Shown piece by piece: positions 5,806 through 32,000 of a DNA stretch of 32,000 nt. How positions within the stretch are numbered: the first letter of the stretch is position 1; each line of letters opens with the position of its first letter. The notes beneath the pieces were generated by a model, which saw nothing but the letters and a program-made list of their open reading frames with translations, ran no database searches and was not told where the DNA came from. Location: contig NZ_AP028907.1 in NCBI RefSeq assembly GCF_036323395.1, positions 1,920,001 to 1,952,000 of the forward strand, written 5' to 3'. Source of the DNA: Pyrodictium abyssi. Its GTDB lineage: Archaea > Thermoproteota > Thermoprotei_A > Sulfolobales > Pyrodictiaceae. The translations under genes were made by a program, and so were the position numbers.

Positions 5806-5814
5806 CGTGGGGTG

Positions 5815-10784: not shown

Positions 10785-10793
10785 GAGCCACCC

Positions 10794-10836: not shown

Positions 10837-10849
10837 GAGGCGCGACACC

Positions 10850-11170: not shown

Positions 11171-11184
11171 AGGAGGCGAGGGCG

Positions 11185-12798: not shown

Positions 12799-14617
12799 GG
12801 TTCACGTTACACCCGCGTTGCTCGGCCTGGGCATCTTTCTATTCGCGCTGGTGGTCATGGATCTGGCGACCGGGCTGTTCTACCGTCTAGCGCTCTACCC
12901 GTCTAGGCGCCTAGTCCTAGCAGCCGCGCTCTCGATGATAGCACTAGGCGTGGTCTCGTCGACGCTGCAGCTCGAGAGGAGCCCGCTGCTAGCCGCCATC
13001 GGGGCAGCCCCCATAGCCCCCGGGGCCTGGCTGCTCTACAGGCTGAAGAAGAAGGCCGAGGAGAGGCCCGAGGAGCCCCGTGGCCTCCTCAGATACGTAG
13101 TCCCCGCGGTTCTAGGCATCACCCCGCTCGGGGAGAGGATTACCGCAAGACTAGGGATCCTCGAGGCCGCCGACCGGGCGGGGATAAGGTGGACCCGGCT
13201 CGAGGCTGCCGCGATAACTAGCCTCGTGCTCGTGGCCGGACTGGCGTCTACATGTATTATACTAGGTGTAGCGGCCTTAACGGGGAGTAGACTGCTCCTA
13301 GCGGTATCCCCGCTGCCGCTGCTGGTACTCCCACTTCTCAGGCTACACCTCGACGCTAAGGCAAAGGAGAGAGCGAGGATAGCGGAGGAGGAGCTGCCGT
13401 ACCTTAGCTTGTGGGCGTGGCTGCTCGAGCGCTCGGGTAGCGGCGGCCTCGAGGACGCGCTCGAGGAGGCACGTAGAAGCGGGCTGTTGCTGGCGCTGGG
13501 GGCTGACGCCGGTAAGAGCCTCGAGGAGCTGGCCCGGAGGCATCCCTCGAGGAGGCTGCGCAGGTTCTATGCATACTACCTTGCGATAAGGGATACTGGC
13601 GGTGATGTAGCTGCATTCTTGGCAGATATTCTACGTTCTGAGATCGATGAGCTAAGAGCCAGAGTTACTGCCTACGCGGAGAACGGTGTGGCACTGGGCA
13701 CCGGCTTGTTGGGCATGCTTGGCACGGCTCTCATATTCGTGCTGTTCAGCGCATTCCTGGGCGCTGGGGGCGCCGGTCTAGCAGCCATAGCCATTCTCCT
13801 AGCCGCTCCTATGGGCTACCTCGTGCTCTCGATGCAGCAGCCGAGGCTGCGCGAGCGCTACGAGGACGCTAAGGCGGCTGTGGCCGCAGTGGTGGCTGCC
13901 AGCGCTGCGGCGCTGCTGGGCTCGCTGCTTATGCTGCCAGCAATCATGGCTGTAGGCCTGGCTGCAACCGCCGGGCTAAGCGTCTACGGCGTAGCATTCA
14001 GGGCGCAGAAGCGCATAGTGAACAAAGAAGAACAGGAGTTGCTGCCACTCCTCAGAATGGTTATCGAGTACACTAGGAGCATGTCGGATAAGCCCATATC
14101 CCAGCTACTGGGGCAAGCAGCTGGTAGTGTCGAGGAGCCGCTAGCTGGCGTAGCGCGGGCCGCGGCGAAGACTGGAAACGTGGCAGCCCGGAGCTGGCTG
14201 GCCCGCTACACTCTCTACACAGTAGTCAAGCTGGTAGGAGGCCAAGGCGCGAGCGACCCCCTGGCGCTCGAGAGGCTCTACGACCTAGTCTACGCGCATG
14301 TTAACACGTACAAGGCCGCGTCTATGCGGCTGAGGATGCTTGGTGCCCTGGCAGTAGGCTTCCCGCCGGTAGTGGTCGCGGCCGCGTCTGGGCTCCAGAA
14401 GATAGTAGGAGGCACAGTGGCGCCGATGCTGCAGGCGCTGCCGGTATCGTTTACAGGAGGCATAGCAGAGGTCATAGCCTGGCTAGCTCTGCTAGGAGCC
14501 GGTGTAATGGGTTTCCTAGCAGCCAAGGCTGTAAGCCTGACTGTAAGGGACACGCTCTGGCCCCTGGCCGCTGTGCTAGCGACGCTGCTCTCCATCCTCG
14601 CCTTCGGGGCTTTTTAA
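12653..14617 (+). CDS. type IV pilus platform membrane protein (FlaJ/TadC/PilC-like, two T2SSF-like repeats)
   Basis: 654-aa polytopic protein. It has two soluble helical segments (LPYLSLWAWLLE...RRFYAYYLAIRDTGGDVAAFL and ELLPLLRMVIEYTRSM...), each followed by transmembrane clusters. It sits immediately after the ATPase gene. Confidence 0.75.
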   Translation: MEEARAQVQAQRARKVITLYQLAVTAASTLLILTGIVPWRALLGLAEPEVHVTPALLGLGIFLFALVVMDLATGLFYRLALYPSRRLVLAAALSMIALGVVSSTLQLERSPLLAAIGAAPIAPGAWLLYRLKKKAEERPEEPRGLLRYVVPAVLGITPLGERITARLGILEAADRAGIRWTRLEAAAITSLVLVAGLASTCIILGVAALTGSRLLLAVSPLPLLVLPLLRLHLDAKAKERARIAEEELPYLSLWAWLLERSGSGGLEDALEEARRSGLLLALGADAGKSLEELARRHPSRRLRRFYAYYLAIRDTGGDVAAFLADILRSEIDELRARVTAYAENGVALGTGLLGMLGTALIFVLFSAFLGAGGAGLAAIAILLAAPMGYLVLSMQQPRLRERYEDAKAAVAAVVAASAAALLGSLLMLPAIMAVGLAATAGLSVYGVAFRAQKRIVNKEEQELLPLLRMVIEYTRSMSDKPISQLLGQAAGSVEEPLAGVARAAAKTGNVAARSWLARYTLYTVVKLVGGQGASDPLALERLYDLVYAHVNTYKAASMRLRMLGALAVGFPPVVVAAASGLQKIVGGTVAPMLQALPVSFTGGIAEVIAWLALLGAGVMGFLAAKAVSLTVRDTLWPLAAVLATLLSILAFGAF

Positions 14618-14625
14618 TGGGGCAG

Positions 14626-14634
14626 TATTATAAG
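14626..14634 (+). promoter_or_regulatory. TATA-box-like element
   Basis: TATTATAAG lies about 30 nt upstream of GTG 14661, consistent with a leaderless or short-leader transcript. Confidence 0.35.
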
Positions 14635-14660
14635 CCATTCAAACCCGTTTTCAAATCCTC

Positions 14661-15590
14661 GTGGGTTATGTACGGAAAGCTCAACAGGTCATACCTCCTG
14701 TCTGGATGCATGGGCTGCCTACATTGGCTGCCAGCGTAACTAGGACCCGGCAGCGGTATGGCGCAGAGCTAGCGCTGGACCTGCTACTAGCCGAGGCTCT
14801 GGGCAAGGGCTACAGGGTAGACGAGGAGGCGGAGCAGTACCGCCGGCTCATAGTCGCTGGGCTGGAGAGGCTAGGGGTGAAGCGCTACAGGGAGGCAACC
14901 GAGCTAGCATACGCCACGGCTTGGCTCATAGACGGCGAGTGCCGGGTCGACGACGGGCGCGGAGCCGACCTACGCGCGCTCGCAGCCGCTGCAGTGTACT
15001 GGGCTTGGCTCGTAGAGCATTCACGGGGGCTCCTCGGCAGGCCCGTGGCCCAGAGGGCATGGGAGCTGGTGGGTAGCAGTAGGGCCAGTTTCTACAGGGC
15101 GATAAGGATATGGAGCGAGTGCTTGCTGGGGCTCGGCAGCCATCATGCACTGCTACGGGGAGAGGCTAGGAGCCTAGTGTTCTCGGGTGTCGCCGCTAGC
15201 TATCCCGGCTACTTCATAGCCGCCCTGAGGGGCTATACTCCCGTGGCGGCGGGCTTTCATAGGCTCCGGCTGGGGCGGCTGCGCCCTGTGGAGCTGCTCC
15301 TTCTCCCCCACGGGGATAACACGCGGAGGACGGGAGCCGTGAACGGCAGGATGACTGTCACGTTTGACCTGGAGAGGCTATACAGCCTATTGAGGATGAG
15401 CTTCGACTATCAGCCCTTCTCGGCCCAGGACTTTGCCCGTATCCTAGCGCTCCACTACCCTAGCGCTGTCCAGGTGCTGAAGAAGCTTGAGACGCTGGGC
15501 ATAGTGGAGCGTATAGGCGAGGGCGTCTGGCGGCTCCGGGAGAAACCCATACAGGAGCCTATGTATCCAGCCCATGGAGGCAGGCTTTAG
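14661..15590 (+). CDS. putative transcription regulator with C-terminal winged helix
   Basis: 309 aa. The C-terminal FSAQDFARILALHYPSAVQVLKKLETLGIVERIGEGVWRL is a typical wHTH. The central helical repeat (ADLRALAAAAVYWAWLVEH...RASFYRAIRIW) is faintly cyclin/TFB-like, which is inference only. Confidence 0.5.
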   Translation: MGYVRKAQQVIPPVWMHGLPTLAASVTRTRQRYGAELALDLLLAEALGKGYRVDEEAEQYRRLIVAGLERLGVKRYREATELAYATAWLIDGECRVDDGRGADLRALAAAAVYWAWLVEHSRGLLGRPVAQRAWELVGSSRASFYRAIRIWSECLLGLGSHHALLRGEARSLVFSGVAASYPGYFIAALRGYTPVAAGFHRLRLGRLRPVELLLLPHGDNTRRTGAVNGRMTVTFDLERLYSLLRMSFDYQPFSAQDFARILALHYPSAVQVLKKLETLGIVERIGEGVWRLREKPIQEPMYPAHGGRL

Positions 15591-15616
15591 AGCCAGCGTC
15601 ATCGGCTACGCGGTCC

Positions 15617-15624
15617 TATAAATG
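15617..15624 (+). promoter_or_regulatory. TATA-box-like element upstream of the pilin gene
   Basis: CCTATAAATG lies about 160 nt upstream of ATG 15782. A GGGGTGA Shine-Dalgarno sequence sits just before the ATG. Confidence 0.3.
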
Positions 15625-15781
15625 TTTTACCATCTTGCCGCTCAAGTAGATGCCCCATGGGCGCATCTCTCCTCCCCCGCGCCTCCTACATCCTCCGCCG
15701 CAGCTAGCCCACCCACTCCCCGCCGTTTCTCCCGCCACGAGGCTAGCAACGTGAAGAAGCCAGAAGGGGTGAGCAGAGGGT

Positions 15782-16186
15782 ATGCCCCGCAGACTCCGTG
15801 GCCTGAGCCCCCTCGTGGCATCGGCTATCCTCTTGGCGGCCGTGCTAGCCGTTGGCGCAGTCATATACAGCTATGTGCACACAAGCACAGCAGCGGTAGT
15901 GGAGAAGCCGCAGCTCATGATAACAGCGGACGCAGACTACGTGGGTTCGACGGCCTACGTGGAGATAAGCATAACGAATAGCGGTGGGGCAGCGGCCAAC
16001 ATAACAGACGTGACCATAGACGGGCAGAGCGTCAAGAGCCAGCTATTCAGCGGGAGCTACTACCTGCTGAAGCCCGGCAAGGAGCTACACAAGGTCGTCG
16101 AGCTATCAAACCTCCCCAGCGGCGAGCACATCATAATAGTGACGCTAGCCGACGGCACAGAGTTCAAGTCCAAGTTCACCAGCTAG
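15782..16186 (+). CDS. archaeal type IV pilin (class III signal peptide, DUF361-like)
   Basis: MPRRLRGLSPLVASAILLAAVLAVGAVIYSYV matches the canonical archaeal prepilin N-terminus (KG-[IL]SPV[IV]A...). The rest is a small beta-sandwich-like domain. An oligo-T run at 16197-16201 follows the stop. Confidence 0.75.
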   Translation: MPRRLRGLSPLVASAILLAAVLAVGAVIYSYVHTSTAAVVEKPQLMITADADYVGSTAYVEISITNSGGAAANITDVTIDGQSVKSQLFSGSYYLLKPGKELHKVVELSNLPSGEHIIIVTLADGTEFKSKFTS

Positions 16187-16231
16187 CCACACATCCTTTT
16201 TCCTATAACATGCTCCACGGAGGTGGTTACT

Positions 16232-16546
16232 GTGCGCATACGTGCTGCTCTATCCGTGGCTGCTCTGCTCACACTGGTCTCCACACAGCTAGCCCTGGTG
16301 GCCTACGCGCAGACCGAGACCACGACCAACGTGAGCATACCAGCTGTCGAGAAGGTAGTTGGTACTGCCGACTACCTGGCGGGGAAGCTGAAGACATTGG
16401 CCTCGGCGGTCATAGTGATAGCGGGGCTTGTCGGCGTCATAAACTACGCTACGGGCAAGGGGCCGGAGTGGCTCTGGAGAGCAGCAATGGCTGCTGTGCT
16501 GGTGGCTGCGTTCTTCTGGTTCATAGGCTACGTTATGGGCGGGTGA
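16232..16546 (+). CDS. VirB2/TrbC/TedC-like conjugative pilin candidate
   Basis: Sec-type signal peptide (MRIRAALSVAALLTLVSTQLALVAYA-QTE), then two hydrophobic helices (LKTLASAVIVIAGLVGVINYA and LWRAAMAAVLVAAFFWFIGYVMGG) joined by a short polar loop TGKGPEW. GGAGGTGG precedes GTG 16232; the track start is 16223. It occupies the virB2 position relative to the VirB4-like gene. Confidence 0.5.
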   Translation: MRIRAALSVAALLTLVSTQLALVAYAQTETTTNVSIPAVEKVVGTADYLAGKLKTLASAVIVIAGLVGVINYATGKGPEWLWRAAMAAVLVAAFFWFIGYVMGG

Positions 16547-16553
16547 CTGGGCC

Positions 16554-17081
16554 GTGCCCCGCCTAGTCTCGGTTTTTAGCATCCCGGACCTCGGCTGGCT
16601 GGAGGAGCCGATAGCGTACCGGTTCGGCGTGGCTATCCGCGTCCGCCACCTCCTGGGGGTGTTCGCCGGCGTCTTCGCTCTCGTGGCGGGCGCGCCGCTC
16701 GAGGCAGCCGCAGCGGTGGCTGGCGCCGGGTTGGTGCTGGGAGCGCTCCCCGTGAAGCCGCCGCTGGGCAAGATGCTTGCCCGCCGCGAGCCCCCGAGGG
16801 AGACTGTCTACTGGGCGCCTATGGGCAGCATACTGGTCTACGTGGTCGTCGAGGAGCCCGGGGAGCTAGTGGTGCTCGTAGACGGGAGGGAGCACGACAG
16901 GCTCCGCGCATCCCCCGGCGTAGCCCGGCTGGAGGTGGCCGGCCTAGAGCCGGGCGAGCACACCATACGCGTCGTGGCCGGCCGGGTTCTCCGGGAGCTG
17001 CGAGTCCTCTCGGGAGAGCCCCGTGCCCAGCCAAAAGAAGCAGGGGCGAGAACAGGGGCGGGACAAAGGAGGGAAGCCTAG
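16554..17081 (+). CDS. small membrane protein in the VirB3 position, with a C-terminal beta-rich domain
   Basis: GTG start 7 nt after the upstream stop. It has a hydrophobic hairpin HLLGVFAGVFALVAGAPLEAAAAVAGAGLVLGAL followed by a beta-strand-rich region (GEHTIRVV). The assignment is positional only. Confidence 0.4.
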   Translation: MPRLVSVFSIPDLGWLEEPIAYRFGVAIRVRHLLGVFAGVFALVAGAPLEAAAAVAGAGLVLGALPVKPPLGKMLARREPPRETVYWAPMGSILVYVVVEEPGELVVLVDGREHDRLRASPGVARLEVAGLEPGEHTIRVVAGRVLRELRVLSGEPRAQPKEAGARTGAGQRREA

Positions 17082-18891
17082 GCCCCGCGAGCCCGGCCTC
17101 ATTTTGCAGGTTAATGGCTACCCCTTCGCCGCGCTGCCCGAGAAGGAGAGGGACCGGTTTCTATCCAAGTGGACAGCGCTACTCAACGCCGCCGCGGGCA
17201 GAGCCCGGGTAAGCGTCTACGCCATGTGGGACGCTGTGGAGGGGTTCCGGTTCCGGCGGCTACTGTTCTTCACAGAGGGCCTCGACCCCGGCCTCCTGGC
17301 CCAGCTCGGCTACGAGCCGAGGCCGGCAGCGGAGCCCTACAGGCCTAGGCCCGTGAAGGCTACGAGAGGGCTTCTCGAGCTGGAGGACGGCAGCTACGCT
17401 AGAGCGTACACCGTTATGAGGCTGCCTGACTCGCTGCCGGAGGCATGGCCCCTAGAGCTCGGCTACGCTGCTGACGAGGTCCACCTGCTCCTGGAGCCCG
17501 TGGAGCCCGCCCGGGCGCGGGGGATGCTCGACCGGAAGCTCTCGATGCTCATGAGCGCGCAGCAGGGCAGCGTTACATGGCAGCTGGAGAGCGAGGCCTA
17601 CCGGCTGCAGCAGCTACAGCAGCTCCTAGGCGGCAAGGCCCGGCTCGTAAAGATAGCCATCGTGATCATTGTGAGGGGCTCCAGCCTCGGGGAGGTCCGT
17701 GAGAGGGCTAGGAGGCTCGAGGAGCTCCTATCCTCGAGGATGGTGGAGTACGCTTCGGGGCCCGGGTTCTACCAGCGCCGCCTCTACAACCTCGAATGGA
17801 CAGTACCAGTGTTCCACTACATCGATACTCTGAGTGCGCAGGCGCTGTACCCGCTGGTGCAGGAGCAGCTGGCCGACTTCGGCGGCTTCTATCTCGGCTA
17901 CGACCTCGACACGGGGGAGCCCGTGGTCTACAACCCCTACGCCCGGCCCAACTACAACGTCGTGGTGCTGGGCGAGAGCGGCTCCGGGAAGAGCATGACC
18001 CTGAAGGTCTACGTCCGGCGCTGGTGGGCCGCCGGGCTGGGCCAGCAGGTCATAATCGTAGACCCTGAGGGCGAGTACGTGGGGATACGAGAGTACCTGG
18101 CGACCGGCCTCGCCGGCTACGAGCTCAGCAAGGACGCTGCGGAGGAGCGGGGCGGCCTCGGCCTAGACCCCGTCAAGCTATACCGGCGGGGAGTCATTGG
18201 CCTCGACGAGGCTGTCGACGTAGTGCAGGAGTTCTACCGTGTCCCCGACGAACTCCGGGGCGAGCTGGTGGAGGCTGTCTCGGAGTCCGAGAGCGTCCTC
18301 GGCGCCGCCAGGCTGGCAGAGGAGAGGGGCACGGGGCTGGAGAGGTACCTGAAGGCCGCCGGGGCCGACTCATGGATATACGAGGGGGAGCCCCCGCTGC
18401 CCACAGGCCGCGGCGCTGTCTACACCCTCGCTGGCATTAGGTCCCGTAGGGCCCGTGCACTAGTAGGAGCGCTTCTAGCGCTCGTGGTGTCCTCGAGGCT
18501 CCGCAACTCGTTGCTAGTAGTAGATGAGGGATGGATGTTCGCACAGTACCCAGCGCTAATGGCAATGTTCGCCGACATAGCGAGGAGAGGCCGCAAGAGG
18601 GGCGTAAACTTCGTGTTCGCCAGCCAGCGGCCGCACGATGTCCTCCGCTCGGAGCACGGCAGGACAATCCTAGAGCAGTCGGCCACCGTGCTTCTACTAC
18701 GCTTGAACGAGGCCTCCCTGGAGGCGGTCAAGCCCATCTATAATCTCAGCGAGGCCGAGGAGGAGCAGCTCCTCGACGCCGAGCCCGGCCAAGGCATCCT
18801 ACGGGTAGCCGGCGGGTGGAGGCTCCGGGTCTACGTGCAGCCCACGCCGGAGGAGCTCCGCGTCTTCAGCACCCGGCCCGGTGAGTGGTAG
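17023..18891 (+). CDS. VirB4/TrbE/CedB-like conjugation ATPase
   Basis: Walker A GESGSGKS (17971-17994), Walker B LLVVDEGWMF (a DE[AG]W type as in VirB4) and FVFASQRP. About 620 aa. The start is uncertain: GTG 17023 overlaps the upstream gene by 59 nt, and TTG 17104 is the alternative. Confidence 0.8.
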   Translation: MPSQKKQGREQGRDKGGKPRPREPGLILQVNGYPFAALPEKERDRFLSKWTALLNAAAGRARVSVYAMWDAVEGFRFRRLLFFTEGLDPGLLAQLGYEPRPAAEPYRPRPVKATRGLLELEDGSYARAYTVMRLPDSLPEAWPLELGYAADEVHLLLEPVEPARARGMLDRKLSMLMSAQQGSVTWQLESEAYRLQQLQQLLGGKARLVKIAIVIIVRGSSLGEVRERARRLEELLSSRMVEYASGPGFYQRRLYNLEWTVPVFHYIDTLSAQALYPLVQEQLADFGGFYLGYDLDTGEPVVYNPYARPNYNVVVLGESGSGKSMTLKVYVRRWWAAGLGQQVIIVDPEGEYVGIREYLATGLAGYELSKDAAEERGGLGLDPVKLYRRGVIGLDEAVDVVQEFYRVPDELRGELVEAVSESESVLGAARLAEERGTGLERYLKAAGADSWIYEGEPPLPTGRGAVYTLAGIRSRRARALVGALLALVVSSRLRNSLLVVDEGWMFAQYPALMAMFADIARRGRKRGVNFVFASQRPHDVLRSEHGRTILEQSATVLLLRLNEASLEAVKPIYNLSEAEEEQLLDAEPGQGILRVAGGWRLRVYVQPTPEELRVFSTRPGEW

Positions 18892-20342
18892 TGCGGCGGC
18901 TCGAGGCCCTAGCCCTCGCCATGGTTCTAGCGCCAGCGCTGCTCGCTGTAGGCGTCCTAGCAGAGGCTGCATACGATAAGCTGCACACACAACTGGAGGA
19001 CTACGGGCTCGAGGACACGGCGTACCGGGACATGGAGGCCACAGCGACCTACACCGTGTCCAACCCGTTGACTGGCGTCTCTCCGCCGCCCTGGAGTCCT
19101 ACGTGGTCGCCGAAGAGCCCCGCCATGCTGACATGCACTTGCAGCCCCACAGCGGACGACCCGAATATCCATGGCGCACCAAGGACCATACTAACGCTGG
19201 GTGAAGGCGAGGCCGTAACCGAGACCGTGACATGGAGCGTCGGGGAAGCTGCCTCTCTTGGCACCCACACGTTGGCATACATGTGTACATGTAAGTATCT
19301 GGAGTGGCAGCGGTACATGGTGAAAACGAAGACCAACATAACCACCACTACGACGGTGAACGACACGACAACCACAACAACCACCACGACCACGGTAACA
19401 AGGACAAAGACGAGAACGAGGACAGTGACCACGACCCTCAGCGACGCCGCCACGCTGATGGTCATACCCCGCCGTGTTAACGAGACGCTGCTAGGCCTCG
19501 ACCTCAACGTGAGCTTGCTGCAGGTGCTCGTGGACTACCCTGTGCCCGGGCAGAGCTCAGCCCTTGTCAACATGACTGTGAGGCTCTACAACTTCGGCCT
19601 AGGATTAGGGAACGCAACGCTGCCACGGGAAGACGGGATGCTGCTCCTCCACAACCTGGCAGTCATGGTTAACGGTGTTCCGGTGATAAGATGCGATAGG
19701 TTCTGCGCCCCCGCCCAGCCACTGCCGGTAGCCGGCGAGCCTGTACCCAGCGTCTCGGGGAGCGCGGAGCTGGTCCTAACGCCGCCCCGCGAGCCCGGCA
19801 ACGAGTATATGCTCAACATAACGATATGCTACACCGAGGACAGGCCGGAGCCCGTAACCACCTGCGTCGAGGACCGGCTGCCGGTCTTCCTGCCCTTCAA
19901 GTGGCGCCTAACCGTGCTCATGGACGACGCCTGCAGGGTCTACAACAGGCTATGGGAGATAGTGCCGCTGGGCGAGCCCAGCGCAGAGACCGTGGTGGCC
20001 GACGCGGCGAAACCCGGACTCCGGGAGGAGCGCGGCTGCATAGTAGCCGCTGCCGGCGCATGCGAGAGCGTGGAGCTACAGGTAGATGGCGACGGAGTAC
20101 CCGTGGCCTCGAGGGCGGGCAGAGGGGAGGCAAAATGGTGCCCCATGGAGCCTGGGGTCTACACTGCTAGGGCCGTCGACGAGTACGGGAACGTGGTTAC
20201 AGGCACGTTCACGATAACATGGTCCGCTGGGCCGCCGCCGGCGCTGAAGCATGCGCTGCTGAGGCTAGCCCTCACCCTCGTAGCCCTCATGGCTATGGCA
20301 TACATATTGGCTGGCGGTAGATGGCCGCTCCGAGGGCTCTAA
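18885..20342 (+). CDS. secreted, C-terminally anchored Thr-rich glycoprotein
   Basis: The start overlaps the VirB4-like stop (GTGAGTGGTAGTG). Signal peptide MVVRRLEALALAMVLAPALLAVGVLAEA. A Thr tract and many N-x-S/T sequons are present. C-terminal TM segment LLRLALTLVALMAMAYILAGG. Confidence 0.65.
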   Translation: MVVRRLEALALAMVLAPALLAVGVLAEAAYDKLHTQLEDYGLEDTAYRDMEATATYTVSNPLTGVSPPPWSPTWSPKSPAMLTCTCSPTADDPNIHGAPRTILTLGEGEAVTETVTWSVGEAASLGTHTLAYMCTCKYLEWQRYMVKTKTNITTTTTVNDTTTTTTTTTTVTRTKTRTRTVTTTLSDAATLMVIPRRVNETLLGLDLNVSLLQVLVDYPVPGQSSALVNMTVRLYNFGLGLGNATLPREDGMLLLHNLAVMVNGVPVIRCDRFCAPAQPLPVAGEPVPSVSGSAELVLTPPREPGNEYMLNITICYTEDRPEPVTTCVEDRLPVFLPFKWRLTVLMDDACRVYNRLWEIVPLGEPSAETVVADAAKPGLREERGCIVAAAGACESVELQVDGDGVPVASRAGRGEAKWCPMEPGVYTARAVDEYGNVVTGTFTITWSAGPPPALKHALLRLALTLVALMAMAYILAGGRWPLRGL

Positions 20343-20356
20343 GCCCTAGGGCTTTT
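20341..20356. terminator. palindrome plus T-run between convergent genes
   Basis: AAGCCCTAGGGCTT (20341-20354) is a perfect palindrome that runs into TTTT. It sits exactly between the stop at 20340-20342 (+) and the stop at 20346-20348 (-). Confidence 0.4.
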
Positions 20357-20525
20357 GCATGATAAACGCTGCCAGCCAGTTGGCGTTCTGCTTCTTCTCA
20401 CGTACCCTGGTGACTGCGTCCCTATGCATGCTTTGCATGTGCCGCCCCATCAGATCTCGTACAGTCTTGTAGTCGGGCCCGGTAATGGTCTTACCACAGT
20501 AGGGACACACAGCCTTGTGCCTCAC
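20346..20525 (-). CDS. small C2H2 zinc-finger protein (59 aa, below the track cutoff)
   Basis: My own translation gives (GTG)MRHKAVCPYCGKTITGPDYKTVRDLMGRHMQSMHRDAVTRVREKKQNANWLAAFIMQKP. The CxxC...HxxxxH spacing fits C2H2 fingers common in crenarchaeal viruses and plasmids. An AT-rich AGATATA x2 region and GGTGAG lie upstream. Confidence 0.5.
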   Translation of the reverse strand: MRHKAVCPYCGKTITGPDYKTVRDLMGRHMQSMHRDAVTRVREKKQNANWLAAFIMQKP

Positions 20526-20597
20526 AGCTTCTCACCAAGAGCAATTGATACAGTTATATCTGAACTATATCTAGGTTTGTAGTACGATTTATGGTAG

Positions 20598-21142
20598 TGC
20601 ACCCGGCTTGCACGGGCTCCCGGCTTCTGGAGGAAGGTGGCCCGGGCCCAGGCTCCCCGGGAGAAGCCCTAGGCTGTAGCCCAGGCGTGTGTGCACCCGA
20701 CCACGTGGAGGCCAGAACTAGCTATAGTGTGTGTCTAGGAGCCCCGGGCCTCCAGGTGTGCCTCAGTACGGGCGCCAAACGTGCGGTCCTACTAGTGCTT
20801 GTAGCAGTCGGCGCAATATTTATAAGCTTCCTGGCATCCAAATATATGGGTGCCCCGGTTTTCATAGATCCGATTCTAGTAGCCCTTAAGCTCGGCATCG
20901 AGATAGAGGTGAGCTCCAAGGTGTGCGGCACTAGCAGCCCGGGGAGAGCCCCGGGGCGCCTAGGGCTCTCCGCACACTCCCCGGGCGGGTCGGGTTCACA
21001 CCCAGGCCCGGGCCTAGGCCGGGAACACGTGGAGGTCCCAGGGAGAGTAGCACCCTCTATCATTAGGCCACACTTTAGCTAGACTGTGGCACAGCATTCT
21101 CCGATGTCGGGTTTGCACCCTTTCCAATGCAAACCGGGTGCA
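20598..21142. repeat. 545-bp ORF-poor segment bounded by 19-bp imperfect inverted repeats
   Basis: The left end is TGCACCCGGCTTGCACGGG (20598-20616). The reverse complement of the right end (21124-21142) is TGCACCCGGTTTGCATTGG, identical at 16 of 19 positions. The interior has G+C-rich palindromic arms around an AT-rich core (about 20810-20880). Confidence 0.6.
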
Positions 21143-21195
21143 AGACCTCCGTCACCATGTTCTACTCGTGCAGACTTGTGGCGTAGACGTCACAG

Positions 21196-21229
21196 CCATT
21201 GATAATCTCTCTATCGGAGTTATCAATGG
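21196..21229. repeat. 10-bp perfect inverted repeat
   Basis: CCATTGATAA (21196-21205) and TTATCAATGG (21220-21229), separated by a 14-nt spacer. Confidence 0.7.
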
Positions 21230-21305
21230 AGGCTATGTGTACGCCGTAGACACGCGTTCTATCTCTACTGGTTCAAATACCGAGTCATAGTGTCTACATA
21301 GTCCT

Positions 21306-21337
21306 CATGGATCACTGATATACTTGAATGATCCATG
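21306..21337. repeat. 9-bp perfect inverted repeat
   Basis: CATGGATCA (21306-21314) and TGATCCATG (21329-21337), about 90 nt upstream of the 21428 start. Confidence 0.7.
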
Positions 21338-21427
21338 GAGCTGCCGTCGCCGCCTATATTGTGCCATGTGTAGCCGTGGCCCCGAGAACCGTCTCCCGGG
21401 CCGGGGAGAACACCGGGGACCCAGGGA

Positions 21428-23752
21428 ATGGGGAGAGCTAGGGCCTCGAGGAGGCTCTGGAGGCTGGGTGCCGCTGGGCTGCTGCTGGCTGGCCTAGCGC
21501 TGCCGCTACTCGCCATAGCCGCTGGCGCCGTGGAGTACCACGACTCCGTGCTGGGGTATAGCGGGGAGGGGGAGCCTGTTGAGCCGCTCCAGAGGCTAGG
21601 CTACGCCTTCGCCACGATACTGGTCTTCATCGGCGGCATTGCCTACGCGCTGGGCCGCTCGGATATCGCGAAGAGCAGCTGGGCGTGGGCAGTAACGGTG
21701 GCAGTCATAGTGGCATGGGTTTCGAGCTATAGTAGCGGGCTGCCCGGCGCCGCCGGAGAGGCCATGGTGTTCTGTCCCCCGGGGCAGTTCTACAAGGACG
21801 TGCCCGCTACGGTTGTGGTGGCGAGGCCAGGCGCCGAGGTCAGTGCCACCATTGACTGGGGCGACGGGAGCACTAGCAGCTGTTCTGGCCAAGGCTACTG
21901 CGTGGCCAGCCACGCGTACAGCGGGGAAGGGCTCTACACGATACGGGTCTCCGGTACCGCTAGCGCCCAGTGCGGTGTCGAGGTAAGGAGCCTGGGGAGC
22001 CTGCTGGAGGAGGGGTTCTCGGGGCTAGAGGCGGACTGCGGCTGGAGCCCGACCTCGTGGCCGGGCTGCATCATGGTGAACGCCGCGAAGGCTGTTGGGA
22101 AGGCCTTCGCGCTGCTGAGCGACGCTGTGGTATGGTTCTTCGCCCACAGCGGCGCCGGCGGCGTCTTCGAGAAGGTCGGGCTGATGCTCGTCACCGTGCC
22201 TGAGTCGGCGCCGCCACTCCTCGACACCCATGTCTACGCGTTGTTCCTCCTAGGCTACGCTGTGGCGGGCCTCGCTCTCTGGAGAGCGTTCTGGGAGTTC
22301 GAGAAGGGGCTGTCATGGCTGGATGCTCTCCGGGACGTAGCGTTCGTGCTGCTGGCGCTCAGCCTCGCGCAGCCGGTGTACACGTGGGCCGCCAGGCTAG
22401 TCAATAGCATGAGCATAGCCATGGCGCAGCCGGGCGTGCTGATGGCGTGGATGGCTATGCTGCTGGCCGTCACGGCTCTCGCGGCTGCGCTCCCCGTGGG
22501 CGGGGCCGGGGGCCTAGCGGCTGCCGGGGCGCTGGGCTTCGCTGGCTTCATCCTAGTAGCGCTGCTGAAGTACCTGCTGCTGGAGGCCATGTACCTGCTG
22601 CTGCCCCTCGTGGCGGTGCTCTGGCTCTTCCCCGGCACAAGGAGCGTCGCCCGGAGCATGACAAACATAGTCGTGGCGCTCATGGCGTGGAACCTAGTCC
22701 TAGCCGCGATGGTAGGGCTCTCCGCCAGGGCCCTGGCAGAGCCGGCCAGCGCCTCGCCCCTAGAGGTCATAGGCTACGGGGTAGCTCTCCCCCTGGCAAT
22801 GCTCGCCACAGGGCCCATGATAGGAGGCCTATTCGGCGCCCCACTCCCCGGGGCCGGCTTCTTCGCCGGCATGTGGGGCCGCGCCGCCGGCTTCGTGGCG
22901 ACCAGGCTAGGAGTGGCGCCACCCCAGCCACGAGCAGCACTAATGGTGGCACCAGGAGCCGTGGTAGGCCACACCGAGTACCTCCGCCCACCGACGCCAG
23001 CGATGCCGGCGCCGGGCACAACAGTAGCAGCCGGCGGAGCCCCCATAGCCTACGGCACCGCGGGGCCACCATCGCCAGCTCCGGCAAGAACCGACTGGCT
23101 CCGGCCGGCAGCAGGCCCAGGCCAGGCATGGGCCGGGCCCGAGGCAGTGTCAGGCATGGTGAGGAGGGTAGAGGAGCTCGGTAAGGGGCATGTAGGGTAT
23201 GAGGTCTCAGGCAGGGTGCCCGGGAGCCTCGAGCGCCGCTTCGCCGAGGAGGCGGCCCGGGATGCCGGCGCAGCGCTCGAGAAGCCGGGGCCGCGCGTTG
23301 AGGAGGTGCCACCAGCGACTAGGAGGATAAAGCAAGCAGCCAAGGAGGCGGCTCTTGGGCCTGTAAAGGCCGCAGCCAGGCCCCTGGCAAGAGAGTACAG
23401 GGCGATTAAGCAAGCAGTATCAGAGGTCGAGGGAGGCCGGGCAGCCAAGGCCGCCGCGCTAGGCGGCGCCGTCGCCGCCCGCCTCCACGCCTACATGTCC
23501 AATAGAGCAAGGCAGTTCATACGCGAGTTCTCAAGAGCGTTTGAGGCCCAGACCGGCATCATGGTGCCGACAAAACTCAAGCAGCTACAGTCCATCGAGT
23601 GGCAGCGCATCGAGGAGAGGATACGCACCGGAGCAGAAGCAGGCGCCATAGTCGGGCAAACTATGTACATGCGGATAAAGAAGCCCTTTGAGCGTTCGGA
23701 GCAGATAGTTAAGGCCTCTAGTGGGCGCAGCAGTGTCTACATGTACGGCTAA
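21428..23752 (+). CDS. polytopic membrane protein with PKD-like ectodomain (VirB6/TrbL/CedA-like candidate)
   Basis: 774 aa. It has a signal/TM segment and a PKD-type motif (IDWGDGSTSS...ASHAYSGEGLYTIRVSG). At least 8 hydrophobic helices follow, then a Pro/Ala-rich segment and a charged C-terminal tail. The VirB6-like call rests on topology and context only. Confidence 0.55.
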   Translation: MGRARASRRLWRLGAAGLLLAGLALPLLAIAAGAVEYHDSVLGYSGEGEPVEPLQRLGYAFATILVFIGGIAYALGRSDIAKSSWAWAVTVAVIVAWVSSYSSGLPGAAGEAMVFCPPGQFYKDVPATVVVARPGAEVSATIDWGDGSTSSCSGQGYCVASHAYSGEGLYTIRVSGTASAQCGVEVRSLGSLLEEGFSGLEADCGWSPTSWPGCIMVNAAKAVGKAFALLSDAVVWFFAHSGAGGVFEKVGLMLVTVPESAPPLLDTHVYALFLLGYAVAGLALWRAFWEFEKGLSWLDALRDVAFVLLALSLAQPVYTWAARLVNSMSIAMAQPGVLMAWMAMLLAVTALAAALPVGGAGGLAAAGALGFAGFILVALLKYLLLEAMYLLLPLVAVLWLFPGTRSVARSMTNIVVALMAWNLVLAAMVGLSARALAEPASASPLEVIGYGVALPLAMLATGPMIGGLFGAPLPGAGFFAGMWGRAAGFVATRLGVAPPQPRAALMVAPGAVVGHTEYLRPPTPAMPAPGTTVAAGGAPIAYGTAGPPSPAPARTDWLRPAAGPGQAWAGPEAVSGMVRRVEELGKGHVGYEVSGRVPGSLERRFAEEAARDAGAALEKPGPRVEEVPPATRRIKQAAKEAALGPVKAAARPLAREYRAIKQAVSEVEGGRAAKAAALGGAVAARLHAYMSNRARQFIREFSRAFEAQTGIMVPTKLKQLQSIEWQRIEERIRTGAEAGAIVGQTMYMRIKKPFERSEQIVKASSGRSSVYMYG

Positions 23753-24462
23753 ATCATGAGGCCTAGGGCGCGTAGTATTGCGAGGCCTATGAAGGCCCGC
23801 TGAGGTAGCTCGTCTAGCGCTTTTTTCGCCTCCTCCTTGCTTATCTCGCCCTTCTGCACAGCCTCAGCCAGGCCACGTCTCCATAGGTCGTCGGCGTAGC
23901 AGGCCGCGGCTGTTCTCGCTATGTCGTATGCTGTCCTGGTGCCATTGGCTAGCTCTAGGAGCATACATTCTAGGGCGCGAGCAAGGAAGCGGCGGCCATC
24001 GCGGGCCTCGATAAGGCAGCGGTATGGGGCAATGTTGTATTCATCGTAACCTGTCAGGGTAATGGGCTCGTCGAGCCAGCGAAAAGAGGCTAGGGGCCGC
24101 GGCTTCCATGTGTCAGCGTTAGTCTGTATCCAGTCAATGTCTAGTGGTGGGTGGCTGTGCATGTAGTCGTCGAGACCGCTGGGCAGTAACAGGTAGTCAT
24201 TGTGGCGCTTGAAGGGGAAGTTCTTCATTGTGTCGCGGGCCACAATGTAGAGGTCATCGCCTATCTTGCGCCAAAATAACTTGATTTCACCCTTGGCGAT
24301 ACGTTCCTCGGCGGCCCTCCATGCCGGGCTCTTCTGCATTAGCTTGAGGCGCTCTCTTGCTTCGGGTGTCAAGTTCTTCTCCATTTCCTTGGCTTGTCGT
24401 TCTAGCTCCTTTGCAAGCTCTTCAGCAAAGCGTTCCTCCTCACTTTTCTTCTTGAAGAGCAT
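23749..24462 (-). CDS. hypothetical protein (second gene of the RHH operon)
   Basis: ATG 24462 is preceded by GAGGTGA, which overlaps the upstream stop. N-terminal charged helix (EEERFAEELAKELERQAKEMEK). No family recognised. The track ORF extends to 24507. Confidence 0.55.
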   Translation of the reverse strand: MLFKKKSEEERFAEELAKELERQAKEMEKNLTPEARERLKLMQKSPAWRAAEERIAKGEIKLFWRKIGDDLYIVARDTMKNFPFKRHNDYLLLPSGLDDYMHSHPPLDIDWIQTNADTWKPRPLASFRWLDEPITLTGYDEYNIAPYRCLIEARDGRRFLARALECMLLELANGTRTAYDIARTAAACYADDLWRRGLAEAVQKGEISKEEAKKALDELPQRAFIGLAILRALGLMI

Positions 24463-24469
24463 GAGTGAC

Positions 24470-25090
24470 TCACCTCTTGAATAGTGATAGTTGTCTCGCC
24501 TCTTCAATTTTATCTAGTGGTACCAGTATCATGGTCTCTGCTTTGCTTCGGCATGAGTCTTTGTCCTTCATGCACGCTTTCAGGTCCGTTGTGTCTATGC
24601 CCATCTTGTCTAGTATCTCTACGGCTTCCTGCTTCTCCTTGAGTAGCTCGTGCATTTTTTGGGAGGCGTAGTCTATGCAATAGTCGAGGTCTTTGGCGAG
24701 GGTCTCGTACTCGCAGCGCCGTGGATCTAGGCAGTACGACTTATACACGGGTAGTGGGCTTACTGCAAGGATTAGTCTTACCTTGGGCCTCCCGCTGTTC
24801 ATGCCTACTCGGTAGGTGTAGAAGACCAGCGGGTCCGCTGCATGGCCCATGCAAGTGGTTTCGTACAGGTAGTAACCTGGTCTCCGATCTTTGAAGAGGA
24901 GCCTTGAGACCATAGCTTCAACACTTGCCGCCTCACCGAGCACATAGCCTTCCACATACTTGTTAACTAGGTGTTCTACGGCCTCGGCTGCCGAGTTGAG
25001 GCCTTCACGCTGGGCTATCTCTAGGAGCCTATCGAAGATCGGGGCCCTGACGCTCACGCTCCGATAACCACGCCTCTTGGTCTCGGACAC
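24470..25090 (-). CDS. ribbon-helix-helix (CopG-like) domain protein with Cys-rich C-terminal domain
   Basis: The N-terminus RRGYRSVSVRAPIFDRLLEIAQREGLNSAAEAVEHLVNKY follows the beta-alpha-alpha RHH pattern. The C-terminal part of about 150 aa is unassigned. Confidence 0.55.
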   Translation of the reverse strand: MSETKRRGYRSVSVRAPIFDRLLEIAQREGLNSAAEAVEHLVNKYVEGYVLGEAASVEAMVSRLLFKDRRPGYYLYETTCMGHAADPLVFYTYRVGMNSGRPKVRLILAVSPLPVYKSYCLDPRRCEYETLAKDLDYCIDYASQKMHELLKEKQEAVEILDKMGIDTTDLKACMKDKDSCRSKAETMILVPLDKIEEARQLSLFKR

Positions 25091-25363
25091 AGAGTCTCAC
25101 CCGTGTCGTCCTCTATACCTGCTTAGACCCGTATAAACTTACCTGCTAACACGTTAATGACGTAAAACCATAGCAAGATATATGTATAGTGATACCTAAT
25201 AGCTTATTTAAGTCTAGAGGGCTAGCCGAGGTCAGCAATAGCACCCTTGGCTTGTCAGGGGGTGGACAGAGGTAGACGGGGGTCGAGAGGGGTATAGTGG
25301 CTCCTAGACCCCAGAAGGGGTATATAGGGGTATTACTGCTCCTGGAGCCTCGGGTTAGTATAG

Positions 25364-26383
25364 ATGTGGCATAGTATAGGTGAGTTCGTCGAGCACGTCC
25401 TCGAAAGAGGTGCAAGGAAAGTCACTTGCTGGAAGAAGGGATCCGAGGGGTGCCGTGTCGCAAAGGTTAGCGTCGAGCCAAGTCTAGTAGGTGAACGGGT
25501 CTACGTATGGACTGAGAGCGAGGTAGAGGAGCTCCAGCGGAGGATTAAGAGCCTAGACTCTATGCGCCGGTTCTTCATATCGCTGATGAATACCGAGAAG
25601 GGGCGGAAAATGTTCACCATAGTCAGCGAGACGTGGAACCCCGTCACGGGGTGTGACCACAACTGTATCTACTGCTGGGCACGGCAGCTAGCGCTCACGA
25701 AGCTACGACGCGCCCCCCGCTACAGAGAGGGCTTCAGGCCCCGGCTCAACCCCGAGGAGTTCAGGAAGCGGTTCAAAGGCGGCGTAGTCTTCGTAAGCGA
25801 TATGGGCGATCTATGGGGCGAGTGGGTCCCTGATGACTGGATCCGTCGTGTACTAAACCATATAAAGAGATTCCCTAATACATGGTTCCTCTTCCTGACC
25901 AAGAACCCGCAGCGCTACCACGACTTCCTGGACGAGATCCCGCCTAACGCGATACTAGGCGCCACTATCGAGACTAACCGGGACAGCTACTTCCAGGAAG
26001 GCCACAAGCCAAGGATGTCCTCGGCTCCACTGCCTAGCCGCCGCTACAGGGCTATGAAAGAGCTAGACTGGCCTCTCAAGTTCATCTCTATAGAGCCGAT
26101 CCTAGACTTTGACCTGGACGTGTTCACCAGGTGGATCGAGGAGATAAACCCGTTCATGGTCTACATAGGCTACGACAACTACAGCCACAGGCTCCCAGAA
26201 CCCCCGCTAGCTAAGACACGAGAACTTATAAAGCGGCTAGAAGACTTCACACTCGTTATACGGAAAACGATTCGCCCAGCATGGAACGAGACACTCAACA
26301 AGTACACAAGCGGGGTGAAAGAAACTGGGCAAGCAAGGGAGTCAAAGAAAACAGCAGAGGCAGAACAAGCAGCAGCCGTATGA
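25364..26383 (+). CDS. DUF5131 / phage Gp37-Gp68 family protein (three-Cys, radical-SAM-like motif)
   Basis: ETWNPVTGCDHNCIYCWA (CxxxCxxC at 25652-25675), VFVSDMGDLWGEWVPDDWIRRVL and WFLFLTKNPQRY match the PF07505 consensus as I recall it. The conserved domain begins near ATG 25610, so the 82-codon N-terminal extension is uncertain. Confidence 0.7.
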   Translation: MWHSIGEFVEHVLERGARKVTCWKKGSEGCRVAKVSVEPSLVGERVYVWTESEVEELQRRIKSLDSMRRFFISLMNTEKGRKMFTIVSETWNPVTGCDHNCIYCWARQLALTKLRRAPRYREGFRPRLNPEEFRKRFKGGVVFVSDMGDLWGEWVPDDWIRRVLNHIKRFPNTWFLFLTKNPQRYHDFLDEIPPNAILGATIETNRDSYFQEGHKPRMSSAPLPSRRYRAMKELDWPLKFISIEPILDFDLDVFTRWIEEINPFMVYIGYDNYSHRLPEPPLAKTRELIKRLEDFTLVIRKTIRPAWNETLNKYTSGVKETGQARESKKTAEAEQAAAV

Positions 26384-26408
26384 GAGGTTTACACACTACC
26401 TAGGTGTA

Positions 26409-27398
26409 ATGCACAAAAAGGCGCTAGAACTTATGGACAGCCTTCCTGAGAACCAGAAGAACCAGGTCCAAGTCTTCTTTGACAAATACTATCCTACAAA
26501 GGAGCAACACTATTGGAGCGTCACAAAGCTCTTTGCTCACGCCATGTATATACCTATGTTTCTGCAAATAGGGCTCCATAATGTTGCTAAGGGCAAGTTC
26601 TCAAAGCTAGTATACATAGATACGCATTCCGGTCCAGGGCTAGCTAAGATAGGGGGCGATGAACGAGACATAGTCCTAGGGTCAGCTCTCCTAGCTCTAC
26701 ACTGGCCCCGTGTAGTCGCGAGCCAGGTGCCTCAGTTCAAGAACATAGCTAGGGGATTTGACGAACTCCACTTTATTGAGCTAAGCTGGCGCAATACGAA
26801 CATACTGCGTAAGTTCGTTAACAGCTTTACACATGTAAAGGTATATACTGACGACGCTAATCGGAGTCTACCTCGCATACCCGTGGATGAAAGAGCATTG
26901 GTGTATCTCTTTGTCGACCCGTATGGCGAGCTTGATTCGCAACTTAGTTACGACGCGCTAAGCAGCTTCGTTGCCCGCCATAGGGCCGACATAATGATGA
27001 GCGTGTTTGCCTCTCATCTTGCCCGCGGATTCTCCAGCATATCAAGGATAGACCTGCTAAAGGAAAGAGTTGAGCGTATCTTTGGGCCAGGGTTCTGTAC
27101 AAGTACGTGCCCTGGGGCACAGCTTCTTTGCAGTATTGGCGCAGCTACACGCGATGCCGTGCTTGAAGCCTTCAAATGCTTGCTAAGGAAGCTGGGTTAT
27201 CAGAAGGTAGTTGACATTCCGGTCCGCTTTGAGAAGGGCATTCTCTACTACATGGTATTAGCTACAAAAGGGTCTGGAGGCTGGATAGACGGCTACATAG
27301 ATTACATTAGTAACAAAGCGCCAAAAGACTATGAGACGCTGAAAAAGCTCTGGCTACGTGCAACCGGTAGACTTGTTGGCCTCGATAACTTCTTCTAG
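26409..27398 (+). CDS. TcmP-like (three-Cys-motif partner) protein, methyltransferase-like fold candidate
   Basis: 329 aa, immediately downstream of DUF5131, which is the arrangement that defines TcmP. YIDTHSGPG and FVDPYGE resemble the RlmJ-type ETHAGAG / DPPY motifs, from memory. Confidence 0.5.
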   Translation: MHKKALELMDSLPENQKNQVQVFFDKYYPTKEQHYWSVTKLFAHAMYIPMFLQIGLHNVAKGKFSKLVYIDTHSGPGLAKIGGDERDIVLGSALLALHWPRVVASQVPQFKNIARGFDELHFIELSWRNTNILRKFVNSFTHVKVYTDDANRSLPRIPVDERALVYLFVDPYGELDSQLSYDALSSFVARHRADIMMSVFASHLARGFSSISRIDLLKERVERIFGPGFCTSTCPGAQLLCSIGAATRDAVLEAFKCLLRKLGYQKVVDIPVRFEKGILYYMVLATKGSGGWIDGYIDYISNKAPKDYETLKKLWLRATGRLVGLDNFF

Positions 27399-31988: not shown

Positions 31989-32000
31989 CCGGGAGAAGTG

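Follow-up and report, generated by a model that had tools for sequence, protein, structure and literature searches.

The DNA analyzed here is a stretch of 32,000 nucleotides (nt) from the chromosome of Pyrodictium abyssi (contig NZ_AP028907.1, positions 1,920,001 to 1,952,000), referred to below as the window. A DNA-transfer gene module at 16232-23752 sits on an integrated element of this chromosome; in matches to P. abyssi proteins, the 774-residue product of its last gene is identical, and its candidate pilin and VirB4 products are 99 to 100% identical. As an earlier note on the same DNA had described, the module comprises five consecutive, intact genes, with every open reading frame (ORF) present on the + strand:

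16232-16546, + strand: VirB2/TrbC-family candidate conjugative pilin, 104 amino acids (aa), with TrwL-like topology and orthologues that match Pfam TrbC
16554-17081, + strand: protein with two transmembrane segments (two-TM protein; hydrophobic hairpin at aa 26 to 67) and a C-terminal β-domain, in the VirB3/PrgI position
17104-18891, + strand: VirB4-family ATPase (Pfam AAA_10, NCBIfam VirB4 models, PDB entry 4ag5)
18885-20342, + strand: secreted, Thr-rich, C-terminally anchored protein in the VirB5 position, with a signal-like N terminus, a Thr run, sequons, and a C-terminal TM segment
21428-23752, + strand: 774-aa polytopic membrane protein, recognized by its hydrophobic segments, with an external PKD-like domain, in the VirB6 position

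The reading frame of the first gene is open from 16223, and the likelier start is GTG 16232, which lies 6 nt after a GGAGGTG sequence and gives the 104-aa form that matches the NCBI protein P0001. The Sec signal and two-helix hairpin that the earlier note ascribed to this small protein are borne out by hydropathy: an N-terminal signal-like helix (aa 5 to 26) ends in the motif VAYA↓Q, and two hydrophobic helices (aa 49 to 75 and 80 to 104) are separated by the loop GKGPEW. This is the layout of TrbC/VirB2 proteins, namely, a signal peptide ahead of two hydrophobic helices with a short polar loop between them, and TrwL, the VirB2 protein of R388, has hydropathy segments in a like arrangement (15 to 33, 46 to 75, and 82 to 101). 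The secondary structure given by AlphaFold2 places helices at residues 3 to 31, 38 to 74, and 79 to 103.

Assignment of this protein to the TrbC/VirB2 family is supported by transitivity through its orthologues, among which those of L001 (a metagenome-derived Pyrodictiaceae genome), L005 (a metagenome scaffold of 32 kb), and L014 (the P. delaneyi type) recur below. The Pfam TrbC/VirB2 model (PF04956; curated cut-off, 27.9 bits) recognizes the syntenic orthologues of L001 (34.3 bits) and L005 (32.5 bits), and other relatives fall under the cut-off (P0009, 27.7 bits; P0002, 18.6 bits; a fusion protein of L011, 16.5 bits). In the alignments made, the window protein is 41 to 60% identical to the members of the family, and close relatives have the loop motif G(K/R)GPEWL.RA almost unchanged; in L011 and L014, it takes a more diverged form. 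When 1.8 billion representative proteins were searched exhaustively with HMMER, three matched at E ≤ 0.001, the P. abyssi protein and two relatives; the family is small. Searches of PDB sequences with the pilin, alone or as a profile, yielded designed coiled coils and other chance matches and no pilin chain. At L011 (1705-2316), where the VirB4 identity is 44%, a 203-aa protein is a fusion of a signal peptide, an immunoglobulin (Ig)-like domain, and, last, a VirB2-like hairpin; its C-terminal part matches Pfam TrbC at E = 0.0098.

The ORF of the ATPase gene is open from 17023 (622 aa) and contains a TTG at 17104, 22 nt after the previous stop; since the NCBI protein has 595 aa, the start is probably TTG 17104 and not 17023. 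The motifs listed in the earlier note (GESGSGKS, VVDEGW, and SQRP) are all present, as is the overlap with the next gene, with the stop codon TAG 18889-18891 overlapping the GTG 18885 of the Thr-rich gene within GTGAGTGGTAGTG. The protein scores 40.8 bits on Pfam AAA_10 (cut-off, 27.5 bits) and 99, 86, 58, and 52 bits on the NCBIfam VirB4 models, compared with 27.6 bits on HerA and 26.6 bits on CedB; with about 600 aa, it scores highest on monoderm-type VirB4 models, and its best score of 99 bits lies under the NCBIfam equivalog/subfamily cut-offs of 325 to 643 bits. In the PDB, the Thermoanaerobacter VirB4 structure 4ag5 was found at 1e-20, versus 4e-3 for HerA. From these comparisons, we regard the assignment of the window ATPase as VirB4-type, and not HerA or CedB, as firm. 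In a translated search of 72,556 plasmids, the top matches were the conjugative plasmids pHVE14, pKEF9, pHGQ25, pING1, and pNOB8 of Sulfolobus (33 to 35% identity over 95 to 99% of the query, E values of 1e-67 to 1e-78), followed by the 103-kb plasmid of Thermococcus nautili 33-3 (32% over 94%), which matches pT33-3 as described in PMC12857230.

A coupling ATPase and the polytopic protein extend the likeness to these plasmids. The former is encoded downstream of the module:

28453-31959, − strand: TraG/VirD4-type coupling ATPase, 1168 aa, with a long conserved C-terminal domain (Pfam TrwB_AAD_bind, TraG-D_C)

Its Pfam scores are 27.4 bits on TrwB_AAD_bind (cut-off, 20.5 bits) and 24.9 bits on TraG-D_C (cut-off, 22 bits), and residues 229 to 895 align with pHVE14 TraG (phmmer, 3.4e-94). 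The C-terminal domain (29275-29862, − strand; residues ~700 to 895) is 34% identical to that of pHVE14 TraG, the two having in common the motif RPDxVAxPFD ... A(V/I)EIES.NEL..HPEQ; no Pfam or PDB match was found for this region. By eye, the domain looks like a winged helix followed by a PD-(D/E)xK nuclease signature.

The 774-aa polytopic protein starts with a signal-like segment, followed by a PKD-like β-sandwich (aa 113 to 187), a block of hydrophobic helices, a stretch for which no secondary structure is predicted, and, at the C terminus, a conserved helical domain. Its TM core (residues 270 to 472) is homologous to a membrane protein of ~600 aa encoded by Sulfolobus plasmids (hhalign probability, 95%; E = 3e-8) and to a 933-aa protein of pT33-3 (96.6%; E = 6e-10). 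The former is probably the “intriguing conserved membrane protein” that is paired with VirB4 and VirD4 in the literature (PMC12857230), and the window protein is a candidate for the translocation channel. The VirB6/TrbL/CedA identity that the earlier note had proposed found no significant sequence or fold support, the homology leading instead to this conserved polytopic protein of archaeal plasmids; there was no Pfam TrbL match, a PDB profile search gave nothing relevant, and hhalign of the family against TrwI and PrgH gave a probability of 0.1%. The hhalign runs of this last kind set thin family alignments against single TrwL, TrwM, TrwI, TrwJ, PrgH, PrgI, and PrgF sequences and are underpowered, so that their null results are no evidence of absence.

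The second gene of the module starts at 16554, 7 nt after the pilin gene, and encodes a small two-TM protein next to VirB4, as VirB3 and PrgI do. PrgI is the Gram-positive counterpart of VirB3. At 175 aa, the window protein is longer and has an added β-domain. Its N-terminal 40 residues are homologous to a 183-aa protein of pHGQ25, a plasmid of Sulfolobus tengchongensis (hhalign probability, 82.6%; E = 1e-5); this protein is encoded directly after VirB4 and matches Pfam PrgI at E = 0.011, under the cut-off. The spacing and the TM hairpin on which the earlier note based a VirB3 position thus stand, whereas direct matches are lacking: Pfam VirB3/PrgI recognized none of the two-TM proteins of the window, L001, L005, L011, and L014, and hhalign of the family against TrwM and PrgI returned nothing. 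Position, topology, and the weak indirect link to PrgI are at most suggestive of a VirB3/PrgI counterpart.

The order of the module recurs in L001, L005, L007, L011/L012, and L014, with VirB4 identities to the window of 84% in L001, 44% in L011/L012, and 43% in L014. In L005, synteny runs from the pilus ATPase through TraG and includes the accessory genes, and in L007, L011/L012, and L014, the core gene order is kept. The ratios of nonsynonymous to synonymous substitution rates (dN/dS), measured against one relative (L001) with saturated synonymous sites, rise from VirB4 (0.11) through the polytopic protein (0.22), the two-TM protein (0.26), and the Thr-rich protein (0.30) to the pilin (0.41). 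Because the same order is found in all of these relatives and the ratios indicate purifying selection, the arrangement is more than chance, and the ratios argue that the module genes are functional. The comparison with related integrated elements called for in the earlier note therefore found the genes neither degraded nor lacking in co-conservation. The highest values belong to the pilin and the Thr-rich protein, as would be expected for exposed parts.

The left part of the window holds the start of the element:

4280-4405, − strand: tRNA-Pro(CGG) with a 49-nt intron (ARAGORN with the intron option, scan of 4200-6000)
5755-5806, − strand: 5'-truncated tRNA-Thr(GGU)-like copy (Rfam tRNA model positions 10 to 63, 25 bits, below the gathering score)
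5815-6708, − strand: tyrosine recombinase/archaeal integrase (Pfam Phage_integr_3, 30.3 bits; cut-off, 27 bits)

Positions 1 to ~4400 hold host genes (Lsm protein, archaeosine tRNA-guanine transglycosylase, PAC2, and tRNA-Pro[CGG]). The truncated tRNA-Thr-like copy abuts the integrase gene and is the probable attachment-site (att) repeat at the left end of the element; it was not called as a tRNA by ARAGORN, even with introns allowed, and no second copy of it was found within the window. Because the copy adjoins the integrase and does not recur in the window, the element starts near 5755 and extends beyond position 32000. Integration at a tRNA gene, as stated in the earlier note, is thus upheld in that the integrase abuts a tRNA-like sequence, with the qualification that this sequence is truncated; no complete tRNA gene was found in the window other than tRNA-Pro(CGG) (missed by ARAGORN in default mode and by Rfam at the gathering score), and this gene does not abut the integrase. 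The integrase of L001 is 36% identical to that of the window and lies beside a truncated tRNA-Asn-like copy, so that related elements occupy different tRNA sites, which argues for mobility.

The same integrated element carries, as the earlier note had pointed out, TraG and a type IV pilus locus of its own:

8904-10940, − strand: large membrane-anchored protein at the edge of the pilus locus (L001 homologue at the same place, phmmer 1.5e-47)
10850-11170, + strand: small protein with a hydrophobic N terminus (from its translation; L001 orthologue at 3.9e-52)
11104-12798, + strand: type IV pilus assembly ATPase of the FlaI/UpsE/TadA class (Pfam T2SSE, 78.7 bits)
12653-14617, + strand: type IV pilus platform membrane protein of the UpsF/TadC class (NCBIfam UpsF, 82 bits versus a cut-off of 400 bits; weak Pfam T2SSF)
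14661-15590, + strand: C-terminal winged-helix protein (weak MarR/TrmB/Crp helix-turn-helix matches at aa 241 to 287)
15782-16186, + strand: archaeal type IV pilin, UpsA-like (NCBIfam arch_flag_Nterm, 27.6 bits, cut-off 20 bits; UpsA, 44 bits, cut-off 130 bits)

No Pfam family matches the 8904-10940 protein. The product of 10850-11170 has weak similarity (E = 0.0021) to the L001 protein that is orthologous to the UpsA-like pilin and is a possible minor pilin. The assembly ATPase scores 143 to 166 bits on the NCBIfam BasE/FlaI/TadA models, under their equivalog cut-offs; the true start of the platform protein gene is probably later than 12653, and the winged-helix protein, which is kept in L001, L005, and L014, is likely a regulator.

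Homology searches establish VirB4, TraG/VirD4, and the large polytopic protein as common to the window element and archaeal conjugative plasmids. With the Sulfolobus plasmids (pNOB8, pING1, pKEF9, pHVE14, and pHGQ25), the element has in common an orthologous VirB4/TrbE, an orthologous TraG including its C-terminal domain, a homologous polytopic protein, a homologue of the two-TM protein adjoining VirB4 (pHGQ25), a small signal-peptide two-TM ORF, an integrase, and the absence of a relaxase. In these plasmids, however, VirB4 is transcribed divergently from the membrane-protein cluster; the small ORF matches Pfam T4SS_pilin and not TrbC and shows no detectable relationship to the pilin of Pyrodictium; the stretches examined revealed no type IV pilus locus; and the plasmids are free replicons of Sulfolobales. 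The small ORF encodes ~103 aa and lies at 7973-8284 (− strand) in pHVE14 (L004), 4929-5249 (− strand) in pNOB8 (L002), and 1925-2236 (− strand) in pING1 (L010); of these, only the pHVE14 copy was scanned, and it reached 25.0 bits on Pfam T4SS_pilin (cut-off, 26.6 bits). The likeness to pT33-3 (T. nautili, NZ_OX281346, 103 kb) comprises the VirB4 and polytopic-core homologies given above and, in addition, the order signal-peptide two-TM gene, two-TM gene, VirB4, and anchored glycoprotein. At L003 7913-13651, genes for a 130-aa signal-peptide two-TM protein and a 157-aa two-TM protein directly precede VirB4 of pT33-3, and an 890-aa anchored protein with 31 N-glycosylation sequons directly follows it. 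Unlike the window element, pT33-3 is a euryarchaeal plasmid and not integrated, and its small proteins and glycoprotein have no significant sequence similarity to those of the window. Both pT33-3 and the Sulfolobus plasmids are experimentally conjugative and encode VirB4 and VirD4 homologues, and deletion of the VirB4 and VirD4 genes of pT33-3 abolished conjugation (PMC12857230).

The gene order is also that of bacterial systems. In R388, trwL-trwM-trwK-trwJ-eex-trwI gives the same succession of pilin, small TM protein, VirB4, secreted protein, (small insert), and polytopic protein, and the bacterial VirB/Trw systems and the window have in common the TrbC/VirB2 pilin family and a VirB4-family ATPase; by contrast, the window lacks VirB7 to VirB11 genes and a relaxase, and its VirB3, VirB5, and VirB6 positions are filled by proteins without demonstrable homology. 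Counterparts in overall gene content are the integrative-conjugative elements of thaumarchaea, with VirB4, VirD4, VirB6, VirB3, FlaI/TadC, and pilins and without a relaxase (Krupovic et al. 2019, PMC6563490). Like the window element, they are integrated, often in tRNA genes, and combine VirB4, VirD4, VirB6- and VirB3-like proteins, FlaI/PilT ATPases, TadC, and pilins; by their description, they differ in that no VirB2-type pilin is reported, the conserved genes are not syntenic, and a TFIIB-ParB pair, unseen here, is present. The earlier statement that the combination is uncharacterized was therefore overstated, the same overall combination having been described in 2019 for these elements, and NCBI and UniRef already have names for two of the proteins (“VirB4 family” for the ATPase and “TrbC/VIRB2 family” for the pilin). 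Archaeal conjugative elements with VirB4, VirD4, and type IV pilus genes and without a relaxase are already known, and the window does not hold a new kind of system; what is new is that an archaeal mobile element carries, in bacterial gene order, a recognizable pilin of the VirB2 type. Beltran et al. 2023 (PMC9905601) showed that the pili of the chromosomal Ced and Ted systems are VirB2-like and stated that archaeal conjugative plasmids are without any recognizable pilus protein or relaxase. According to a 2025 paper, archaea lack VirB3 homologues, and no description of a recognizable VirB2/TrbC pilin on an archaeal mobile element was found in the literature searched.

With an orthologous VirB4, an orthologous TraG, and the polytopic protein of the Sulfolobus-plasmid/pT33-3 type, the module has the makings of an archaeal conjugative element, and we consider it likely to serve an integrative conjugative element as its mating apparatus, a machine of the kind found on the Sulfolobus plasmids (pNOB8, pING1, and pHVE14) and pT33-3. 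Several points weigh against this reading. Transfer, excision, and a pilus have not been observed for the element, and its sequence does not tell export of DNA from import; its right end lies beyond the window, so that a second att copy and completeness are not visible there. Scans of the window proteins with Pfam and NCBIfam found no recognizable relaxase, although the element runs past the window. The window pilin by itself matches no Pfam or NCBIfam family, with nothing on Pfam TrbC even at E ≤ 10, so that the VirB2/TrbC assignment made in the earlier note holds for the syntenic orthologues and, for the window copy, only through them. Neither the VirB3 identity of the two-TM protein nor the VirB6/TrbL/CedA identity of the polytopic protein is demonstrated. 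The structural check proposed in the earlier note, run for both the pilin and the polytopic protein, gave AlphaFold2 models with predicted local distance difference test (pLDDT) scores of 57 (4-sequence alignment) and 46.5 (6 sequences), respectively, with only the PKD-like domain confident in the latter; because of this low confidence, the fold searches are uninformative. Foldseek of the pilin model against the PDB found nothing meaningful, and that of the polytopic model was dominated by Ig-like matches, with the R388 TrwI chain 7o3v_J as the only non-Ig match in the top 50 (E = 0.15, TM-score of 0.22, nonsignificant).

Some of these points would also suit a cryptic or defective integrated remnant that no longer transfers; its genes would then have persisted merely through recent arrival or because they serve the cell surface in some other way, as in adhesion or contact between cells. 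The right end and replication or processing genes are not seen in the window, a relaxase is not recognizable there, and the spot between the Thr-rich and polytopic genes is variable and holds unique sequence, including a 555-bp segment bounded by repeats. Against decay, all module genes are intact, their dN/dS ratios are those given above (against a relative with saturated synonymous sites), and their order is kept in several divergent relatives, and we therefore think a remnant unlikely.

Slightly less probable still is a domesticated system resembling Ced (Sulfolobales, Aeropyrum) or Ted (Thermoproteales), by which the host would import chromosomal DNA for repair and the element would not be transferred. 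Ups pili bring Sulfolobus cells together and work together with Ced in that genus, and an Ups-like type IV pilus locus adjoins the window module. Ced and Ted likewise combine VirB2-like, VirB4-like, and VirB6-like parts (pilin, ATPase, and polytopic channel protein) without a relaxase, and the signal peptide of TedC is cleaved, as predicted for the window pilin, whereas CedA1 is reported to be unprocessed (PMC9905601). These systems, however, are chromosomal and “domesticated,” and Ced imports DNA, whereas the window module lies on an element with an integrase and an att-like tRNA fragment, related copies of which are found at different tRNA genes, and its TraG/VirD4 is orthologous to those of conjugative plasmids. 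An assignment to the host Ced system was rejected on this mobile context and on the scores for CedB (26.6 bits; cut-off, 700 bits) and CedD (24.3 bits for TraG; cut-off, 600 bits). The family is, moreover, rare and patchy, with the three pilin matches mentioned above and 14 proteins that match the window VirB4, and separate Aeropyrum-type CedA1 homologues are reported in Pyrodictiaceae (PMC12518558); the window pilin is probably not one of them, since the exhaustive pilin search gave no other match at E ≤ 0.001.

That the small protein is a generic two-TM membrane protein, with DNA or protein translocated through a channel without a VirB2-type pilus, is very improbable: the missing Pfam match of the window copy, the low-confidence model with its uninformative Foldseek result, the weak hhalign of the family against the single TrwL sequence (P ~0.01), and the absence of recognizable pilus proteins from archaeal conjugative plasmids in the literature (PMC9905601) are outweighed by the syntenic orthologues that exceed the curated TrbC cut-off, the nearly invariant loop motif in close relatives, and a position identical to that of virB2 in R388.

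Beyond the reading as a mating apparatus, a wider proposal can be put forward only tentatively, and we hold it to be doubtful as a whole: that the element carries a non-domesticated archaeal type IV secretion system that builds a VirB2-type pilus from genes in the bacterial virB2-virB3-virB4-...-virB6 order, and that the small two-TM genes beside VirB4 on the plasmids encode the same component. If this were true, archaeal plasmid conjugation would be pilus based, as in bacteria, and Ced and Ted would descend from elements like that of the window; the conserved C-terminal domain of the archaeal TraG might then stand in for the absent relaxase by supplying the DNA-processing step. As it stands, the element joins a pilin of the Pfam-recognizable TrbC/VirB2 family, in bacterial gene order, to the trio of VirB4, TraG, and membrane protein of experimentally conjugative archaeal plasmids and so offers a testable sequence link between bacterial-type secretion systems, archaeal plasmids, and Ced/Ted. 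It also supplies a concrete candidate pilin to look for in preparations of P. abyssi filaments, of which electron cryomicroscopy images already exist (PMC12518558), and candidate pilin genes on pT33-3, for which genetics exist.

How the mating apparatus would work is inferred, from the building of a pilus and the parts played by the two-TM and Thr-rich proteins to the direction in which DNA moves and its processing. The type IV pili of the element (ATPase, platform, and pilins, 10850-16186) would draw cells into contact in the manner of the Ups pili of Sulfolobus. The 104-aa pilin would be exported by Sec, cleaved after VAYA, and polymerized into a thin conjugative pilus, with polymerization driven by the VirB4 ATPase. 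This ATPase would dock on two partners, namely, the two-TM protein in a VirB3/PrgI role and the polytopic protein, which would form the channel (VirB6 role). The Thr-rich anchored glycoprotein may have a surface role in adhesion, exclusion, or passage through the S-layer. TraG would feed the DNA of the excised element into the channel, and the integrase would insert the element into a tRNA gene of the recipient.

The Thr-rich protein agrees with its earlier description as secreted and anchored: it has a signal-like N terminus, 24 Thr in residues 151 to 190, 7 N-x-S/T sequons, and a C-terminal TM segment (453 to 479), features by which it is probably a glycoprotein. A Pfam BiPBP_C-like β-domain scores 25.1 bits (cut-off, 26.8 bits). 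The protein is kept in L001, L005, L007, and L011; no homology was detected to TrwJ or to the 890-aa protein of pT33-3, and no homologue was detected outside the relatives of the window.

The earlier note had described the 1.1 kb between this gene and the polytopic gene as noncoding. The gap itself was found (1085 nt, 20343-21427), and it holds a short ORF together with a palindrome:

20346-20525, − strand: 59-aa C2H2/BED-type zinc-finger ORF (Pfam zf-BED, 21.6 bits; cut-off, 20.6 bits)
21180-21245, no strand: imperfect palindrome (ATTGATAA...TTATCAAT), an inverted repeat ~190 nt upstream of the polytopic gene

The zinc-finger ORF was not found in related loci. The palindrome core (21196-21239) is the only part of the gap that is conserved in L001 (13955-13998) and L005 (8933-8976), and the palindrome may be an operator or promoter element. 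Between the two, a GC-rich segment of ~555 bp (20593-21147) with many short palindromes is bounded by 20-nt inverted repeats (85% complementary); it is absent from related loci and could be a small inserted element. The spot is variable among relatives, with a ParE toxin gene in L005 and a Gp49-like gene in L001; in L011, it is occupied by a 65-aa gene, the product of which has, by eye, a ribbon-helix-helix-like N terminus. The gap was also considered as a degraded toxin-antitoxin pair like the genes that relatives have there, and no similarity was found.

Between the polytopic gene and TraG lie further conserved genes:

23749-27398, strands as given: four conserved accessory genes, encoding proteins of 252 aa and 206 aa (− strand) and a DUF5131 protein and a protein of 329 aa (+ strand) (Pfam DUF5131, 71.5 bits)

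They are found in the same order in L005 and L006. The DUF5131 protein, with a radical-SAM-like N terminus, and the adjacent protein of ~330 aa (25364-27398) form a pair that lies inside the element and is kept in L005 (12701-14732).

Outside the left end of the element, between tRNA-Pro and the truncated tRNA copy, 4636-5642 holds a 118-aa ORF (+ strand) and a 114-aa ORF (− strand), and the guanine-plus-cytosine content is lower across the left flank; the two small ORFs might be the remnant of another insertion.

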